From Mobula hypostoma (taxonomy: Eukaryota), in NCBI RefSeq assembly GCF_963921235.1, contig NC_086097.1, positions 126,296,001 through 126,360,000 of the forward strand: a stretch of DNA of 64,000 nucleotides. The letters are read 5' to 3'. Below are positions 2,401 to 26,400 of this stretch, one piece after another. Position numbers and translations under genes: made by a program. The stretch's first letter is position 1, and every line of letters starts with the position of its first letter. The notes below the pieces were generated by a model, which had not been told where the DNA came from, did no database searches, and saw nothing but the letters and a program-made list of their open reading frames with translations.

Positions 2401-5400
2401 GAAACAATACATCCCTGGGACCCCCGAAGGCTGCATCCTCGGAGGTTCCCAACTCCGGTTAGATACCTTTCTGAAGACCACCCTACTCCTAGTCCAGCAC
2501 ACTTCCCCTACTCCCATTTTGTTTGGTATAACTAATAAGTAGAAGGTATACAATTTTTTTTTAGAATAGTGGAATTTTAAACTCCTGAGTGCCCCCACCC
2601 ACCCCTCGTTATTTTCTCTCAACTGTCTACCCGGTATCCCATTTAACGCCCTGTGAGATTACTTCCACAAGCCCACAGTTAGGAAATTCCTAATCATAAA
2701 CTTTAAACAACTAAAGTCTATTTCAATGCCTCAGAAATTTTGTTATTGTCTCTCGGGGATTGCTTGCAAGTTCAGAGACCACTCCCATTCACTCATTGGC
2801 TAGATAATCTTGTATACAGTTTATCCTATGATCGTGTTTTTACTCACCGGCCACATCCCGTAAAACGATAAATTATAGGAGCAGAATCGTGCCTTTTGGC
2901 CATGCAATGCACTTTGCCATTTAAACGTGGTTGATTTTGTTCTTGGTTCTTGATCCTCCAAAATATTCGGCATCGAATTTAAACTGGAGGTGGCGGAGAG
3001 TGGGCGGAAGGAGATTTTTGAAGGAGAATGGATTTTCTTCAACCCCATTCCTCCACCTACTCCATGTAAGTTTAACCCCCTTACTAAGCAAGAACCTATA
3101 AACATCTGCCTTAAATACAGGCAATGAGTTGACCTCTACAGCTCTCTGTGTCAGTGAATCCCATAAGACATAGGAACTGAATTAAACATTTGGCCCCTCG
3201 AGTCTGCTCCGCCATTCCATCATGGCTGATTTATTATTCCTCTCAACACCATTCTTCTGCCTTCTCCCTGTAACCTTCAAAGCCCATGCTAATCAAGAAC
3301 CTATCACCCCAGCTGCCTGTGGCAATGAATTACACAGATTCACTGCACACTGGCTAAAGAAATTCCTCCTCATCTCTGTTCTAAAGGAATGTCCATGTTT
3401 TCTGGTACTTGTGCTCTCTAGTCCTAAACTCCCCCACTATAGGAAATGTCACTCCATACCCACTCTAGGTGGGTATTTCAATATTTGTTAGGTTTCAATG
3501 GAATCCCTGTAATTCTTCTAAAATCCAGCAAGTACAGGCCCGGAGCCATCAAGTACTCCACATACGTTAACTCTTTCCTTCCCAGTATCATTCTCATGAA
3601 CTACCCCTGGACTTTCTCCAATGCCAGCATATCCTTAGGTCAGGGGCTCAAAGCGGCTCACAATTGTGACCAATGCTTTATAAGGCCTTATCGTTGCATC
3701 CTTGCTTTTATATTCCAGTCCTCTTGAAATGAACACTAACATTGCATTTGCCTTCCTTATGACCGACACAACCTGCAAGTTAACCTTTCTGGAATACTGC
3801 ATGAGAACTGCCAAATCCCCTTGCACCTTTCATTTCTGAATTTTCTCTTCACTTAGTCTACACCTTTATTCATTCCAGCAAAGCACATAGCCATACACTT
3901 CCCCAAACTATATTTCATCTGTCCACTTCTTTGCCCAATTTCCCAATCTGTCTTAGCCCTTCTACAAACTCCTTATTCCTCAACACTACCTGCCCTTCCA
4001 CCTATCTTTGTATCTTCTGCAGGGTGAATTCTATCATATTATGATCACTGCCTCCCAGGGGGTTCCTTTACCTTCAGCTCCCTAATTAATTTTGGTTCAT
4101 TACAGAATTGCCTTTTCCCTAGTAGGGTCAACTACAAGCTGCTCTAACTAGCCATCTCATAGGCATTCTACAAATTCCCTCTCTTAGGATCCAGCAGCAA
4201 CCTGATTTTTCTGATCTACCTATATACCTACATATTGAAATCCCTCAAGACTATCCCAACATTGCTCCTTTGATATGCCTTTTCTCTCTCCCGTTGTAAT
4301 TTGTACTCCACATCTGGCTACTGTTCGGAGGCCTGTATATAACTTCCACCAGGGTGTTTTTAACCACGCAAACAACAGGAATTCTGCAGATGCTGGAAAT
4401 TCAAGCAACACACATAAAAGTTGCTGGTGAACGCAGCAGGCCAGGCAGCATCTCTAGGAAGAGGTACAGTCGACGTTTCAGGCTGAGACCCTTCGTCGGG
4501 ACTAACTGAAGGAAGAGTGAGTAAGGGATTTGAAACTTTCAAATCCCATACTCACTCTTCCTTCAGTTAGTCCCGACGAAGGGTCTCAGCCTGAAACGTC
4601 GACTGTACCTCTTCCTAGAGATGCTGCCTGGCCTGCTGCGTTCACCAGCAACTTTTATGTGTGTTGCGTGTTTTTAACCATGTAGTTTCTTAACTCTACC
4701 CACAAGGATTCTACATCTTCCGATCCTATGTCACCTCTTTCTAAGGATTTGATTTCATTTTTTACCAACACAACTACCCCACCCCCTCTGCCTACCTGTC
4801 TGTCCTCCTGATACAATGTTCATCCTTTGATGTTAAATCCCAACAATGATCTTCTTTCAGCCGTGACTCTGTGATGCCTACAATGTCATACCTGTCAATT
4901 TTGAACTGTGCTACAAGATCATCTATCTTATTCCAAATACTGGGATTATTCAAATATAACCCTATCACCTGACTATTTTCCCTCACAGTCTCACTGCACA
5001 CTGCTTCTACTTGTATACTAACTGGTCCATCCTCTGTCATTTCACCCTGGTTCCCATCCCCCTAACAAATTAGTTTAAACCCTCCTCAACAGCTCTAGCA
5101 AACCTGCCCACAAGGATATTGGTCCCCTCAGTTTCAGGCAGCAATTCAATGATTACTACCCTGGAGGTTCTGCTTTTCAGTTTTCTGCCTAACTGCCGAT
5201 AGGCTCTCTTCAGGGCCTCCTACCTTTTCCTACCTACATCATTAGTACCAATATGTACCACAACTTCCAGCTGTTCATCCTCCCCCTTCAGAATGCTGTG
5301 GATGCAATCTGAGACATCCCTGACCCTGGCACCTGGGAGGCAACATACCATCTGGGTGTCTCTTTCACATCCACAAAACCTGCTTTCTGCCCCTCTAATT

Positions 5401-17400: not shown

Positions 17401-20400
17401 AGAAACAGTATTTACTCATGCAAATTTTCACAAAACATGGATATCTTGTAGGTGAAGAGTTTGCTGGTTCATTTCCATGATGTTTCAGCAACTGATAGTC
17501 AAAGGGCTCTGTCAGCAAAGAGCCTGAGACATTTCATTGCGATATTGTGCTTTGTGGAAAGTATAACATCACAGCTAAATGTCCTGCTGGACTGATAGAA
17601 AGCCAAACAAGAAACAACCAATTGGACACATACGCCTATCTTCCAGTAAGAAAAGGTCATAAGTACTCACAGCTAAGAGAGAACTTGCTGGTAAGATATG
17701 ACAAAAAATGCCACAATCTCTTTGGAAGAGAATTTTATGATGTCATACCAGAGAGAAGTTTTTTTTGAGTATTTTGTACAAATATGATGATGACATCGAC
17801 TCAGGCCTGAGAGGCCAGCATCCGGCATTTTCATGCCTTACAAGGCGCGGAACGAGAGACTGTGTGGCACGCCACTCCTCATACAGACGTAAAGCTATTT
17901 GTACAAATAGCTGTAAAGTTAGCACAGCTAAAAAGCATTTGGATTGGAGCTCCTTCACTTTAATGTCCATTATGTGCTACAAATTAGATTTGATATAAAA
18001 TAGGGCCTTTGATACACATTGTTCATGTCCAGAACTCCAAACTAGTTCCCCCATGTATTGCAGGTGAGGTTGCATAGTAACTTCAAATGTCATAATTTTC
18101 ACTAAGCCTACAAGCATCATTGGCTATTCATTCTGAAGTAGACAAAATAAAAAGCTGAATCTTGTTTCACCATCAGGAAAAAAATATAAGCTTGCCTTCT
18201 GTGGAGTCAGAAAGATTACCTCATAGCAGTACCTCCTGCTTGAAGTTTGTTTCTCAGTGTTCTGTTCCTAACCTATTCTGCTCCCTCTAAGTACCCCTTG
18301 TCCCACCCTGTTGCTGATGTCTTTGGACTCTCACTTGAATGCCTGGCTAGCCCCGCTAATTTTCATGCCATTGATCCATACTCCTTTAAGTACCTGCAGC
18401 CCAACCCAAATGAATCCTGTCTCGCCCTCAGATTTGGCCCCCAAAACTCCCATTCTTCAGTGGAAACTAACTACCATGATGTCATATCTGACTATCTTTG
18501 TTCGCTACATTTAATGCTGTCAACATCTTTGGGCACCCACACTTGTGTGTATAGCTTATGTTTTGATCAAGATAAAGAGTTCAATATTATTTTCTCCTTC
18601 AAAACCTTAGAAAATATTAAAGTGACCTCTTAAAATTGAACAGTCTATGAACTCAAGTTTATTTTTCATATGTTAATTCAGAAGTACCAAGACCAATTAC
18701 ATTTTCTTTTTATTCTGAGTGGGATTGGAGAACAAAGTGAATATAGATTGATTCATAAACTTTGTGTGTAACCCAAGGTTATTCAAGCTCCTAAAATAAT
18801 AGCTGAAGTTACTGATACAGCAGGGGATTTAACATATCGTTTTGGCTATAAAAATGTCAAGTAGTCTCCTCACTTTTTTATTAAAGATCTTAATAGATTT
18901 ATTTTATGTAATAAACACAAGTCAGTTCCTTTTTTAAAAGTCTCGTTTTAAAAATTTGGACTGATATGTGAAGAAAGAATATTTATTGTATTTTAGGTAA
19001 ACCTCAATGTGGTACAAAAGTTAATACAAAAAGGAGCTAAAGTTGACACCATGGACAAGCATGGACAATCATTGCTTCATGAGGTATTTATTGATTCTTT
19101 TCAATTGTTGAAGTCACTCCACTCTTTAAGAAGGGGAAGGGGCAAAAGTCAGGAAATTATAAGGCTGACTTCTGTGGTTGGGAAGATTTTGGAGTCCAGT
19201 ATTAATGTAGGATCCATGTTTCTGTTTCCTATCTGCATTGTATTTTGTGTTGCACATTTATTATGGTAGTTAGTCACATGGGCTGAGGTGTGGTTGAAGT
19301 GAAGAGTTCAGTTATAGGTTCATGCTTTGTCTTTAGGGTCAATCTAGAGCTAAGGGAGTGAGCTGGGGGTGATATCATCTTTTTGTTGACCACTTAATTA
19401 TGTGTAATTACATTGAAGAAAGCTTAAGTATGTTTATTTTGCTATATTGCTAGTTTTAGTTTCATTAGTTTTTATGGCTTCAAGATTGTTTGTTTTGCTC
19501 GATTCTTAACAAAAGGTTGAATGATTCTTTGACTTTGGAACCCTGTTATTGGACTGGATTGGAAGGCATGTAATACAGGATCAAACCACCCCACCCCTTG
19601 CTTAGTCTCTGAGCGGTGTTGGTTTGTTCAAGTAGCTGCTACATTTTGTCAACAAAAAAGATTCAATAGATTTGATACCAAACGAACATTATTCTTCTGC
19701 AAGGACTACATTTGCACTTGTCAATGAAATTAGAATTGCAGCATGGAGAAACCGGAGAAGACCATTCTCACTCAGCCTGGGGTAAGCACTTTACTAAAGT
19801 CCTGGAGGTGCTCTGCATCACTCTTGCCAGTTACAATGATGTCATCGAGATCACATTCCATTGCTCTTTGCCAAATTGCTGGAGCTGATGCAATGCCAAA
19901 GACAAAATGATTATACTGGAACTGTACCATATAACCTACTGTATAATATAAGACTACTTTATGTTGTACCAATACATCGTATTGAGCATGCACTATTAGG
20001 TGCGTATTGATCTGTATATATGCGTTTGGTTCGGGTTCCGTAAGTAAAAAGCCCCTGTTAACTTAGCTTCAGTCTCTAGCATTCTTATTTATAGTTTTGA
20101 TGTGTAACCCGGCCACATACACAACAAATTGGCGACAAGGTCAATGAACCTGCATCGTATCAGAATGCTGTGTTTTAATTGATAACGGCACTCAGAAGAG
20201 GCAGAGTAAGGCCGCGAGTCTGAAAAGAAGCAAGAGTTCAGCCGGAGTTGGGAATGTCGGGAGACTGAAAGACATAGTAGGAGCCACGGCGTGTCCAGGC
20301 GAGACCACAGCCGGCGCTGAACTCCAGGGCTGAGGGTCTGCCGCCTCAGAAGGGAGATAAAAAAAAAGGAGTAACACACGCATCTAGCTAGAGTTCGCTC

Positions 20401-23400
20401 GTGACGCTAGCAAAAAAAAGGTCACGTGAGTCAAAAAGAAAACAAGGGACTGGGTTTAAATTAACAAGGGACTGGGGCTAAATTCACATTACAAGGATAA
20501 ATTAACATAACAAGGATGGTGTTAATTGGAGCCATTACAGCATTTGATAGTGGCATTGAAGACTGGGCAACTTATTTTGAAAGATTAGAGTTATATTGTG
20601 ATGCTAACGACGTTAATGAAGAAAAGAAAGCCAGCGTTTTACTTAGGCTACGTCTTCACTATGCCGGATAATTTTGAAAACAAAGCTTTTTCTCTTTGTT
20701 TTGACCCTCCGTCCACATTGAAACGTCATTTTCATTCCCCGAAAATGGAGCTTTTCTAAAACACTCGCCAGAGTGTGTAAATTTGAAAACGATTGTTGCG
20801 CGTTGTAGTGTGGATGGGGTAAATGGAAATATTTAAAAATGCTGTTATGACAACACCAAACAACAATGCTTTTTCTGCTTCTGCTTGGTACTGCGCAAGC
20901 ACTGCTGGACGGCTGTTATAACACGCAGTCGATGTGAATGGCGTGAGAGTTAAATTGTAAAGTGAGCTTTTTTGACTAGATCCCCTAAATTGATTTGATT
21001 GAGTCTATCTTTAAAAATATTAATGTCAGAAATACTGCGCAGGTCTGGCGGCACTCCTTGTTGATCTTGGGTAGAGGACGGCTTCATGCATGTGTTGTTT
21101 ACTTTATTATCTATGTTAATAGCTTGTTTGGAGTTAAACATCTCCATGTTCTCCACTGCTTTGCTGACTTTGTAGTTATTTGTAACTCACCGGAACAGCT
21201 CGACTTCATTGTCTGTCTAAACAAAGAAGTCCGGTCTGCTTTTTCCAGCGGAGGTTTTCTTTGTATTCCTCGAAGACATTGTTGAAACCTTTCTTTCGCT
21301 GTTGTTGTTGGTACTGTAGTTTTTGAACAATGGAAATAGCACAACACCGCCGCGGAAACGTAAATATTACACTGTTTCCTCTTCGCTTGTTTTCTGTAGA
21401 TGTGTCTGCGTGTGCCCAGTAGGAGTAGATTCACTCAAATATACGTTTTAATGAGGACAGAGATATTTTGAAAAATGCCTAGTGTGGACACCTGTTGTTT
21501 TTACTCGAAACCAGCGTTTTCAAAATTATCTGGTCTAGTGTGGACGTAGCCTTAGTGTAATGGGCGCGAAAACATACGGCCTGCTATGGAGCTTGTTAGC
21601 CCCTGAAAAGCCAGTTGACAAAACGTTCAAGCAAATAGTAGACACTCTCCAACAACATTTAAACCCAAACCGCTGGTTATTGCTGAAAGATTTAAATTCC
21701 ATAAACAGAATCAGAGCAAAGATGAAAGCATTTCTGAATATTGTGCTGAATAGTGCAAATTATCAGAACATTGTCAATTTGGATCTGGTCTATCAGACGC
21801 ATTGAGGGATAGGTTAGTGTGTGGCATGCACTGTGAAACCACGCAGAAGCTCCTGTGTGAAAAAGACCTTACATTCGAGAAAGCGCTAAATATCTCAATA
21901 TCATTAGAAATAGCCGCACGAGGTGCTTCAGAGATACAACAAAAATCTCTGGAATATTTTTCGAATAAAATGTCACTGCGCAGAAATGAAGGAAAGAAAT
22001 GTTACCGTTGTGGGAACAGGTCACATGACCCTGATGGGTTAAAGATAAAGAATGCTGAAATTGTGGCAAACAGGGCCACACTGGCAGAGTATGCAAAGCT
22101 AGTAAACAGCAGGAAAAGGGCATAATACAGAGAAACAAGAAACCCCAGAAAGGAAAATACAACAATGTGCACAAAATGAAAGAAAGCAAATCTGATGAAA
22201 ATGACTCAGACAAAAGTGAATTGTCTTGTCTGCAACTTCACAGCGTGGAAGAGGCAGATGATCGAAGAGTAATATGGATCACTCCACAAGTGGCAGGCGT
22301 GAGACTGAAAATGGAGTTGGACACAGGCTCAGCCTTAACAGTGATCACTGTATGCGACTACAAACGACTGTTTTCGCACTTACCTCTGAAACGAACTAAA
22401 CTACTGCTGAAGACTTACACAGGACAGAAAGTGCATCCCGAAGGCAAAATTAAAGTGACAGTGACCCACGGAGGTAAAACACAGCAACTGAACCTTTATG
22501 TACTGAAAAATGGAGGACCACCATTGCTGGGATATGAATGGCTCAGGAAAATCCAGTTGGATTGGCACACCATCAAGGCACTAGATGTGTCAACAAAGGA
22601 GGGCAGCTCGGCAGGGAAGATGTCTGCAGCTCTCCTCTCACCCATTGTCAACTATTACAATGACGAGGAGGAGCTAGATAGCGTCGACAATGAGGACGAA
22701 CGCAGTATCCGTGGCCATGACTCAGATGAAGATACAGAGGGTGCAAGGGAGACAGATATTGCCAATAAGCAGGATAATGAAGACTACCTGGAAGTAAAAC
22801 AGCAGATGTACCAGGAGAAATTGACATCTCTCAAAAGACAGCTACAGCAGTTACAGGAAGGCACTTTGCAGGAGTATCAGAAAAGGATGAAGAAACTAGA
22901 TTAACAATACAAGGAAAGAATACGAAATGCAGAGCTTTTCTGCAACTGGAGACGAAAAAGTGGGAAGGAATTATATTAGAGAGAAGAAAGAAGCAGAGAG
23001 AGTGCAGGAGCCCCCACCTCAGACCAGCCCGAGCCACAACCACCTCACGCAGCCTGTCAACACCATGAGCGAGGCCGAGACGGAGCAGCAATCCAAACAG
23101 CAGCAGTGGCAACAGCCAGACAAACCCAAATCCCCCGGGGAGAAGAAAGTCATCGCAGCAAAGGTTCTTGGAACAGTAAGGTGGTTCAACGTACGAAATG
23201 GATACGGATTCATCAACAAGAATGATACAAAGGAAGATGTGTTTGTACATCAGACTGCTATAAAAACGAATAGCCCATGGAAATACCTCTGCAGGGTTGG
23301 AGACGGTAAAACTGTGGAGTTCGACGTAGTGGAAGGCAAAAAGGGTGCAGACACAGCAAACGTAACTGGTCCCGGAGGAGTTCCAGTCCAAGGAAGCCGA

Positions 23401-26400
23401 TATACCGTGGACAGAAATTGTTATCGTCGCTACAACCCTCACCGCCGTCGTCCACCATGTAATTACCAATAGAACATTGAAGATAGAGAGAAAGGAGATG
23501 GAGCAGAGACAGCAACAGATAGAGAAAACCAAGATGATCAAGATCAGCAACATCGCCCTCCTTACAGAAGACAGCGTTACCCACCTTACTTTGTTCATTG
23601 TCGCTATGGTCGCTACCCACAGTATAGCAACCAGCCTCAGGGAGAAACTGCTGAGGGTGGTGAAATAAATGAAAACCAGGTTGCCAGGGGAGAAGGTAAA
23701 CCTAACAGAAGACAAAATCAATTCCATTCAAACCGAACAGCTTTCACACAAGGTAAATCTTGAACCAATCATTTCCTCCATTGAGAATCATACACTTATT
23801 CTTTTGCAGGGAAGTTTCTTTTGCAAGTACATACTTTGAATCCTCAGCCAATGTGTTTGGCAACAAAATAGGATACATACAAAGAGCACGTCAGGCAGAC
23901 AAAACTACATGGACAAAAATAAATGGGATGCACAGGGAAGAGAAAAAGATAAAAAGATAAAAAGATAAAATGGTTTCAAACAGAGCACTAATTTGCATGC
24001 TGTTGATGAAAAATTTGATAATGGTAAGAGTGACACAGGACTGGGTAGCCTTGGGATTTACATTGTAAAACCTAACAATAGACAAACAATATGGCTTACA
24101 CCAGAAGTGAACGACAAATTAATTACAATGGAATTGGACACTGGCTCAGCTGTTTCAGTCATTCCACAAAATGAGATTGAATGGTATTTCAAAGATACTG
24201 AACTGAAACCTGCAGATATCCAACTAAGAACTTATACTGGAGAAAAGGTAACTCCGGTGGTTATGTCATTGTAGCAAGAAATATAACAACCAACATTGGG
24301 TTTTTATGTGGTAAAACAGGAGGGCCAGCATTATGAGGTCATCAGCGGCTGAGACAAATACAAGTTCTTTGGAGATCCATTCACCATTTGTATGCCACAA
24401 TCCTGCAAAAGAGTCAACAAAAAGCAATTTAAAAAAGTACCGATGATGCCAAGGCAGTTTTCAGGGATGGCATTGGAAAGCTAAAGCATCTCAAGGATGA
24501 AATAGTGTTAAATTAAAATGGCACATCTAAGTTTTACAAAGACTGTTCGGTTCCTTATACCATCTTTATAAAGTAGCTGGTAAGCTAGATTGCATGGAGG
24601 CTGAAGGGATTCTTTCCAAGACTGAGTGGAGTCTATGGGCAATACCAGTTACCCCAATAGCCAAGAAGAATGAGTTTATCAGGAAATGTAGTGATTTTAA
24701 GGTCACCATCAACCCAGTAGTGAAAGTAGATCAATACCCCCATGTCCAGGATAGAGGATATCTTTGCAAAACTTTCGGGAGGCAAACACTCCAGCAAAGT
24801 GGATTTAGCTGAGGCTTACCAGCGGATGGAGATGGAAGAAAAGTCCAGTGTTTCTCACCATCAACACTCAGAAAGGGCTTTATTGCTATAATAGGCTTAT
24901 TTTTGGAGTAACATCTGCACCTGCAGCCTGGCAGAAAGTTATGGACCAGGTGCTGCAAGGCTGCTCAGGTACTCAGTATTAATGATATCATTTTACTGGT
25001 AAAGATGACAAGGAATATCTTCAAAATCTCAAGAGAGTATTAAAGAGATTGGAATATTGTGGGCTCAGATCATAATGCAACAAGTGTGAATTTTTTTAAA
25101 CCAAGCATCCACTTATTGTAGTCACACCATTCATGCTCAAGGATTACATAAGTGTGCTGAGAAAATTCAAGTATTGGTGGATGCCTTAAGGCCAAAGGAC
25201 GTGTCACTGTTGTGGTCCTTGTTAGGATTTGTCAGTTAGGTATTAAAGATTCCTGTCAAACCTGCTTAAGGTGTTCCACCTCTTGAACTTATTACTACAG
25301 ATCAGAAAGAAATGGCAATATTCGAAGCAATGTGAGGTGGCTTTCTAAAAAGTAAAGGAAATGGTCAGACACTGTACTCACACATTATGATCCACGCCGA
25401 TCAGTGAAGCTTGCCGTGCACTGTTCGGGATACCAACACGTTCATGAAGAAAGGTTTCCAGAGCTGTCAGAACCACTTCCTGCAGTCCCAGAGTCAACTT
25501 CTACAACCACCATGGAGGAATCCCCAGAACCTGAGATTATATATATACAAGCCCCATTTCCAGAAAAGTTGGGATATTTTCCAAAATAACAATCTGTGAT
25601 ATGTTAATTCACGTGAACCTTTATTAAACTGACAAAAGTACAAAGAAAAGATTTTCAATAGTTTTACTGACCAACTTAATTGTATTTTGTAAATATACAC
25701 AAATTTAGAATTTGATGGCTGCAACACACTCAACAAAAGTTGGGACAGAGTTAAAATAAGATTGAAAAGTGCACAGAATATTCAAGTAACACTGGTTTGG
25801 AAGACTCCACATTAAGCAGGCTAATTGGTAGCAGGTGAGGTATCATGACTGGGTATAAAAATAGCATCCATCAAAGGCTCAGTCTTTGCAAGCAAGGATG
25901 GGTCGTGGCTCACCCCTTTGTGCCAAAGTTCGTGAGAGAATTGTTAGTCAGTTCAAAAGGAACATTTCTCAATGCAAGATTGCAGAGAATTTAGGTCTTT
26001 CAATATCTACAGTACATAATATTGTGAAAAGATTCAGAGAATTCAGAGACATCTCAGTGCGTAAAGGGCAAGGTTGGAAACCACTATTGAATGTGCGTGA
26101 TCTTTGAGCCCTCAGGCGGCACTGCCTAAGAAATCGTCATGCTACTGTGACAATTATAGCCACCTGGGCTCGGGAGTACTTCGGAAAACCATTGTCACTC
26201 AACACAGTCCATCGCTGCATCCAGAAATGCAACTTGAAACTGTATTATGCAAGGAGGAAGCCATACATCAACTCTATGCAGAAATGCCGGCGAGTTCTCC
26301 GGGTCTGAGCTCATCTCAGATGGTACGAAAGACTGTGGAACCATGTGCTGTGGTCAGATGAATCCACATTTCAGCTAATTTTCGGAAAAAACGGGCGTCG

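Follow-up and report, generated by a model that had tools for sequence, protein, structure and literature searches.

The window analysed here is a stretch of 64,000 nucleotides from the devil ray Mobula hypostoma (contig NC_086097.1, positions 126,296,001 to 126,360,000 of the forward strand; positions below count from its first letter). Between 19923 and 23856 it carries one 3'-truncated copy of a non-autonomous Ty3/Gypsy-type long terminal repeat (LTR) element of about 3.9 kb. The copy consists of an LTR, a gag gene and a protease (PR), followed, at the usual position of reverse transcriptase (RT), RNase H and integrase (IN), by cDNA of two host genes, SUDS3 and YBX1. An initial annotation, made from the letters of the window, had proposed that a Gypsy element captured both mRNAs behind its protease. 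This was borne out, since the introns are gone and the junctions are common to the copies of the element. What we observed is a genuine, amplified LTR family that has transduced host genes twice. We put at roughly 80% the probability that it is a defective Ty3/Gypsy-type family which retained LTRs, leader, gag and protease and in which spliced host mRNA took the place of RT, RNase H and IN.

The identity of the cargo could be read from three open frames. The first, 22059-22904 (stop to stop), encodes a CCHC knuckle, the protease and then, from MSAALLSP onwards, the start of SDS3 with an Sds3-like domain (PF08598); against a Pfam cutoff of 25.4 bits, a natural full-length copy scored 28.7 and the window fragment 23.9. 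The protease thus runs without interruption into the SUDS3 start codon at 22620, as had been annotated. The second frame, 22900-23472, shows RNYIREKK, then 70-odd noncoding-looking bases, the ATG at 23065 and a cold-shock domain (PF00313, 72.4 bits, E = 3e-20). It agrees with the further claim that the SUDS3 frame passes through a YBX1 5' untranslated region (5'UTR) into YBX1, the tail of which is encoded by the frame 23473-23763. Named SDS3 proteins of rays (Mobula, Pristis) share 93% identity with the SUDS3 part, and ray proteins named 'YBX1-like' share 70-94% with the YBX1 part. In skate, one YBX1 isoform is modelled into the 5'UTR and has there the same peptide as window 22990-23064, which identifies this stretch as YBX1 5'UTR. 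The two stops and two 1-nt deletions that had to be repaired in the annotated fusion proved private to the window copy when it was compared with contigs of four other runs and with other genomic copies.

The host genes are present in the same genome. Exons 1-7 of YBX1, on contig C75, match window 22978-23719 exon by exon at 92.6-100%; the six introns between them are missing from the element, and the break falls within exon 7. On contig C78, two exons of SUDS3 lie 1.16 kb apart that are contiguous in the element. The cargo is thus spliced host mRNA, which has lost six introns in the case of YBX1 and at least one in that of SUDS3.

The junctions recur throughout the genome. Seventeen further loci, spread over 14 contigs of this 3.48-Gb genome, match the stretch 22500-23800 over its full length at 86-92% identity, so that copies sharing both junctions, which the initial annotation expected of a propagating fusion, do exist. 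The PR/SUDS3 junction (22607/22608) was identical in 27 of 27 copies. The SUDS3/YBX1 junction, with SUDS3-specific bases starting immediately 5' of its crossover, was present in all 18 copies of the window's kind (subfamily B, 17 of them spanning it). At the third junction, where YBX1 homology ends in host exon 7 and a segment that we call X begins, 17 of these 18 copies agreed. Among the contigs listed for four other runs (X19-X22), some of X19 and X20 also bridge SUDS3 and YBX1. Such recurrence across many contigs leaves a negligible likelihood for an artefact, be it a misassembly or two retrocopies made by long interspersed nuclear elements (LINEs) inside one Gypsy copy that was later segmentally duplicated.

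The machinery for LINE retrocopies is certainly present, as one locus (L033; G000:C1:203888968-203892216, minus strand) is an ordinary LINE-type YBX1 processed pseudogene with a target site duplication (TSD) of 16 bp. It starts 21 nt 5' of the element's YBX1 start and continues through later exons into 3' sequence, which places the 5' end of the YBX1 mRNA upstream of the capture point. A LINE-made processed pseudogene is marked by a poly(A) tail and a TSD of 7-20 bp directly around the cDNA. No poly(A) and no internal TSD was found at any junction of the element, so neither gene piece bears the separate marks that the initial annotation had named as speaking against a propagating fusion, and the breaks fall within exons and UTRs. 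The element-borne copies resemble LINE retrocopies in being intron-less SUDS3 and YBX1 sequences scattered through the genome; unlike them, they lie between LTRs behind gag-PR, with TSDs of 5 bp outside the LTRs (exact in four of eight copies examined, with one mismatch in three, none in one). These TSDs differ from copy to copy, as they do after independent integrations.

Table 1. Parts of the element copy in the window and the fragment that abuts it
Feature	Position	Strand	Remarks
5' LTR	19923..20126	+	about 204 bp, TG..CA ends; matches both LTRs of other copies
Leader	20127..20515	+	collinear with other copies; stretch resembling a primer-binding site directly after the LTR
Start of gag	20516..20646	+	natural gag open reading frame has weak Pfam matches to DUF7083, PNMA and Retrotrans_gag, all below cutoff
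Unrelated repeat inside gag	20647..21550	.	about 0.9 kb; private to the window copy and foreign to the family
Remaining gag, two CCHC knuckles and linker	21551..22262	+	
Protease and last Gypsy-derived bases	22263..22607	+	DTG at 22320-22328
SUDS3 cDNA	22608..22977	+	12 nt of 5'UTR before the ATG, codons 1-120; one stop and two 1-nt deletions, private to the copy
SUDS3/YBX1 crossover	22978..22994	+	17 nt, 15 of 17 matching SUDS3 codons 121-126; the YBX1 5'UTR version is carried
YBX1 cDNA	22978..23719	+	87 nt of 5'UTR and codons 1-218 from ATG 23065; one private stop
YBX1/X crossover	23710..23719	+	10-nt microhomology
Segment X, first 137 nt	23720..23856	+	X is also found in SUDS3-only variants; the window copy ends here
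Different Gypsy fragment (protease and RT)	23857..25500	+	abuts the truncated copy; not part of the element described

The 5' limit of the first capture could be set against the parental element, which is still in the genome. Contigs of three other runs track the window to 22607 and then diverge, and the linker motif of the diverging continuation gave 179 genome matches vs 0 for a reversed control. In one parental copy (L042), 88.6% identical to window 22108-22607 (500 nt), identity ends exactly at 22607; the sequence goes on with KATSERLSKIL and an RT with YLDD, in agreement with the linker between PR and RT in autonomous relatives. This places the start of the first capture at 22608. The window protease, itself just under the Pfam cutoff (gag-asp_proteas, amino acids 77-163, 26 vs 28.2 bits), shares 58% amino acid identity over 178 residues, ending at ALDVS, with the autonomous polyprotein P0392, in which Pfam places PR at 290-378, RT at 505-645, RNase H at 708-839 and IN at 951-1149. 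The best full-length autonomous relatives in public proteins are only 38-58% identical. None of RT, RNase H and integrase is present in the family's elements of 3.3-3.9 kb, whose size leaves no room for them. We therefore class the family as a non-autonomous derivative; an autonomous relative would have supplied the enzymes that mobilised it in trans.

The second capture left short homologies at both of its ends, in line with the initial annotation, which had pointed to microhomology as a mark to look for. At the SUDS3/YBX1 junction the homology is the 15 of 17 nt given in Table 1; at the YBX1/X junction GGACAAAATC (10 nt) is common to the host gene and to the longer X of another copy (L041). 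We had also considered this joint as a 3-nt filler followed by a SUDS3 remnant, an interpretation that was dropped when the copy with the longer X showed the 10-nt microhomology. Short homologies at both junctions are the signature of template switching by reverse transcriptase, which is well supported for the YBX1 step. In retroviruses, minus-strand synthesis that switches between co-packaged RNAs keeps the donor sequence across the short homology, and the acceptor sequence begins just upstream. By analogy, switching of this type may apply to the present element.

The family unit was defined from twenty fetched 10-kb loci. It opens with an LTR of about 204 bp and a leader, followed by gag, which has two CCHC knuckles, and by the protease. 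Next come SUDS3, YBX1 and X (0.5 kb); after these, a stretch of about 280 bp containing the final codons of a pol gene precedes a purine tract and the 3' LTR. LTR pairs were present in 15 of the twenty copies, and the nine pairs of at least 183 bp were 80-95% identical. In the eight copies printed, a putative primer-binding-site-like motif beginning AATTGGCGA, conserved and containing TGG, always follows the 5' LTR, and the purine tract AAAAGGGGAGGAG always adjoins the 3' LTR.

Three kinds of copies could be distinguished. Subfamily A has nearly the whole SUDS3 coding sequence (about 311 codons) and about 100 nt of 3'UTR, without YBX1; its SUDS3 lacks eight codons, KENLIAEL, that are located within a host exon. 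In subfamily A', SUDS3 breaks off around codon 221-230 and gives way to X. The window copy is a member of subfamily B, which has SUDS3 codons 1-120, YBX1 and X. A census of the YBX1 part, in which 40 of 40 candidates were scored, returned 29 element-borne copies, the one processed pseudogene and the host gene. Probes of SUDS3 gave first-look candidates in far larger numbers, namely 1,703 (125 scored), 441 (150 scored) and, with a 2.16-kb probe, 1,942, all of them lower bounds with fragments included. As a rough guide, the depth of contigs of four other runs over PR and SUDS3 was also tens of times that over YBX1. The double capture is a minor offshoot, of about 30 copies, of a far larger SUDS3-only family. 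In a tree of the shared gag-PR-SUDS3 region, which took in 25 of 27 copies (L012 and L024 were dropped), B formed one side of a branch with support of 100/98, and terminal branches had a median length of 0.051 as against inner ones of at most 0.011. This is a burst-like pattern, with a single origin of B.

Segment X varies in length between about 0.5 and 0.9 kb among copies. Its long form, of 932 bp, was found in copy L027 (G000:C50:105071071-105081070, original + strand 4303-5234), where it is flanked by a 10-bp direct repeat within SUDS3. The antisense strand there shows RING-finger-like remnants (CTICLGEL..PCDHV, CPLCR) with a Pfam RING match below cutoff (E = 5e-4). X was not seen in the parental pieces L042 and L043. 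A search with X gave 148 candidates, of which 40 were scored; all of these matched at full length with 88-90% identity, and no source copy stood out among them. X may be a third captured or inserted sequence.

A history in three steps would account for these structures. In the first, reverse transcription would have passed from element RNA to SUDS3 mRNA and then returned, exchanging the region from just past the protease to the last pol codons for a near-complete SUDS3 cDNA. This cDNA would have stood in frame with Gag-PR in a founder open reading frame (ORF) of about 700 amino acids and given rise to subfamily A. In the second, a variant would have gained X inside SUDS3 (A'). In the third, minus-strand synthesis on an A'-like RNA would have jumped at the 10-nt homology into exon 7 of YBX1 mRNA, copied YBX1 into its 5'UTR and returned at the 15/17-nt homology to SUDS3 codons 121-126, yielding subfamily B. 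All subfamilies would have been copied and integrated by the autonomous relative's enzymes. This mechanism of template switching and mobilisation in trans is well supported at the YBX1 step, and we infer the rest.

The reading frame bears on whether the cargo was ever of use. Gag, PR and SUDS3 are encoded in a single frame, which is still open across the PR/SUDS3 border in several natural copies; in one natural copy it is open from SUDS3 across the 5'UTR and YBX1 and on into X. An in-frame gag-PR-SUDS3(-YBX1) fusion is therefore ancestral, and the two junctions annotated as in frame were so in the founder. Selection was assessed by sorting substitutions into replacement (N) and silent (S) and into singleton and shared ones, without a consensus; YBX1 was compared with the host coding sequence, and each of the other regions with single natural open copies. 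The N-terminal part of gag (gag-N) was depleted in shared replacements (shared N/S 91/60, singleton 186/57, odds ratio (OR) with 95% confidence interval 0.46 (0.30-0.72), p = 7e-4). No such depletion was seen for the protease (52/22 and 116/53, OR 1.08 (0.60-1.96), p = 0.88), and SUDS3, N-terminal part and rest together, gave intermediate values (45/22 and 180/67, OR 0.76 (0.43-1.36), p = 0.36). For YBX1 (107/27 and 164/50, OR 1.21 (0.71-2.05), p = 0.51) shared variants were no poorer in replacements than singletons, and the overall N:S in 18 copies, 272:78 or 3.49, was close to the neutral 3.57; purifying selection on YBX1 was not detected. Gag is constrained, and YBX1 and the protease look neutral. 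Of the translated, propagating fusion that had been proposed, the defective LTR family stood (29 YBX1 copies, exact TSDs in four of eight), and the sign of selection on the fusion did not; in particular, the expected dN/dS below 1 was not borne out for YBX1. These values make a single ORF its own control: gag is constrained and protease and YBX1 are not, which marks gag as the part that a defective element must itself supply.

SUDS3 and YBX1 are thus most likely passengers and not working parts of the element. We regard it as improbable that the cargo worked for it, that is, that a translated Gag-PR-SDS3(-YBX1) protein raised transposition or lowered silencing, be it through the SDS3 coiled coil, contacts with Sin3-HDAC or the RNA-chaperone domain of YB-1 in particle assembly, although this would explain the success of the family. 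Precedents are at hand: YB-1 was reported in particles of mouse mammary tumour virus with Gag and as an HIV cofactor (PMC4486188, PMC6040738), and purifying selection was reported for captured genes in crocodilian endogenous retroviruses (ERVs; PMC4299795) and for 9 of 24 testable incorporations (37%) by Abrusan et al. 2013 (PMC3597677). In the ray family, YBX1 evolves at the neutral ratio with a confidence interval that excludes gag-like constraint, the YBX1 subfamily is small, the protease that would be needed to release the cargo looks unconstrained, and stop-free SUDS3 copies are as frequent as a Poisson distribution predicts (4 observed vs 3.1 expected among sixty full-length copies with a mean of 2.97 stops). 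The data do not support a function of the cargo for YBX1; for SUDS3 they are compatible with a function as well as with its absence. It is equally doubtful that SDS3, as a C-terminal extension of Gag-PR, gave an edge through its coiled-coil dimerisation region or through Sin3-HDAC contacts. If it did, this would explain the apparent, roughly tenfold excess over the autonomous parent, a comparison of unlike lower-bound measures, and the occurrence in stingray models, and it would be a case of a retrotransposon prospering via a chromatin-corepressor subunit.

Several observations weigh against the reading of a defective family with passenger cargo, or at least against parts of it. Both captures are in frame, which has a probability of about 1 in 9 by chance, and SUDS3 candidates number 1,700-1,900 vs 179 matches of the parental linker, about tenfold, although these are unlike measures, each of them a lower bound; had the cargo been beneficial, the two facts would be accounted for. 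The OR of 0.76 for SUDS3 is compatible with neutrality as well as with gag-like constraint, and 7 copies only covered the C-terminal two thirds of the gene. The copies analysed were the best-scoring ones and not a random sample. The evidence from microhomology is confined to the two YBX1 junctions. The LTRs of L042, the one parental copy examined, are only about 75% identical to those of the family, and three A' copies had three different SUDS3/X junctions. The order from A over A' to B is a proposed one.

That the host has domesticated some copies as new genes of SDS3-like or YBX1-like type is in our view very unlikely. Some public models do appear whole, among them SDS3-like proteins of 311-321 amino acids and a 278-amino-acid YBX1-like ORF that starts in a SUDS3 remnant, and four of sixty full-length SUDS3 copies are free of stops. 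One of the 18 B copies is unbroken in its YBX1 part, the other 17 having a stop or frameshift there. Such numbers of unbroken copies are, however, what neutral decay predicts, and the gene models are automatic predictions. The defective LTR family with passenger cargo remains our preferred reading.

Capture of mRNA by LTR retroelements is established, and we compared the ray family with known cases. Acutely transforming retroviruses carry gag-onc fusions, for example gag-myb-ets in avian E26. As in these viruses, spliced host mRNA lies within an LTR unit in frame with Gag, more than one gene may be taken up, and replication genes are lost so that a helper is needed. Unlike them, the ray family is a germ-line Ty3/Gypsy-type one without env and with hundreds or thousands of genomic copies, and its cargo shows no sign of selection or of action on the host. 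Maize Bs1 was reported to have transduced three host segments and to have a chimeric ORF that is transcribed and translated (PMC13317346). It is likewise a non-autonomous LTR element with serially captured host pieces and a hybrid frame; it differs in being a plant element that carries fragments only (PMC13317346), whereas the ray family has one near-whole coding sequence and switch points defined at base level. Crocodilian ERVs captured the mRNAs of KIT-ligand and nectin3, with six insertions and purifying selection described for the nectin3 lineage (PMC4299795). They, too, are vertebrate elements with intron-less host cDNA, which in the nectin3 case replaces a viral gene; they are ERV4-like retroviruses (PMC4299795), whereas the ray family belongs to the Gypsy type, has copy numbers of about 30 and about 10^3 and carries an apparently neutral YBX1. 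Abrusan et al. 2013 described 51 cases of host fragments in consensus sequences of transposable elements, Gypsy included, the fragment often lying, as here, within the element's ORF on the same strand (PMC3597677). Their search differed in using yeast and fly genes as search terms, and the main text of that article contains no Sds3 or cold-shock case (PMC3597677). No report of an LTR carrier of SUDS3 or YBX1 in rays was found in the literature searched. The family described here is thus a clear vertebrate case in which a Ty3/Gypsy-type element, and not a retrovirus, transduced host mRNAs twice in series; for the second capture both switch points can be read to the base, and the same genome also holds the parental element.

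The finding corrects both the annotation and the statistics of intron-less copies, as the 1,700-1,900 first-look SUDS3 candidates and the YBX1 copies, about 30 in number, all belong to the cargo of a single LTR family. This accounts for the many gene models named 'SDS3-like' or 'YBX1-like' in the genomes of rays. Copies of the element are annotated as 'Y-box-binding protein 1-like' or 'SDS3-like' (P0001-P0009, P0125-P0131, P0223), and some of these models splice gag or flanking sequence onto the cargo. Marks of the family, namely the eight-codon gap in 'SDS3-like' models, a shared joint peptide and an end in GQNQFHSN, were seen in public protein models of Mobula birostris, Mobula hypostoma, Hemitrygon akajei and Hypanus sabinus; among these matches, those from sawfish and skate look like true genes. 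Judged from these models, the family appears to be at least as wide as devil rays and stingrays. A 2026 preprint counts SUDS3 as one of the five leading retrocopy parents in cartilaginous fishes and links retrocopy numbers to non-LTR elements and selective filtering; an LTR carrier is not mentioned in its passages on retrocopies (10.64898/2026.06.26.734816). The LTR cargo may explain the rank of SUDS3 in that list, and the other top parents (MIPOL1, SDF2L1, SLU7, ZNF276; 10.64898/2026.06.26.734816) might likewise be cargo of mobile elements instead of independent retrocopies.

Compared with the family unit, the window copy has the 5' LTR only, contains the 0.9-kb foreign insertion in gag and ends at 23856. 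No 3' LTR was found anywhere in the window, and a repeat search and self-BLAST of the window gave no LTR pair or direct repeat, because the copy is 3'-truncated. In contigs of other runs, 20-38 per run show loose ends before 23860. Position 20646 is joined directly to 21551 in most other copies, and pieces of the repeat at 20647-21550 occur near other copies, for example in opposite orientation near L009. A piece of Gypsy RT on the minus strand (19772-19922) lies directly upstream of the 5' LTR; with Gypsy fragments on both sides, the copy sits amid older Gypsy debris. A last observation concerned window 23031-23091, around the YBX1 5'UTR and start codon, where the contig depth rose to about 1e5 in run X22 and 1.4e4 in run X20, with joints leading back by about 52 bp. 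A unit of about 52 bp derived from this region seems to form a tandem array in some organisms.

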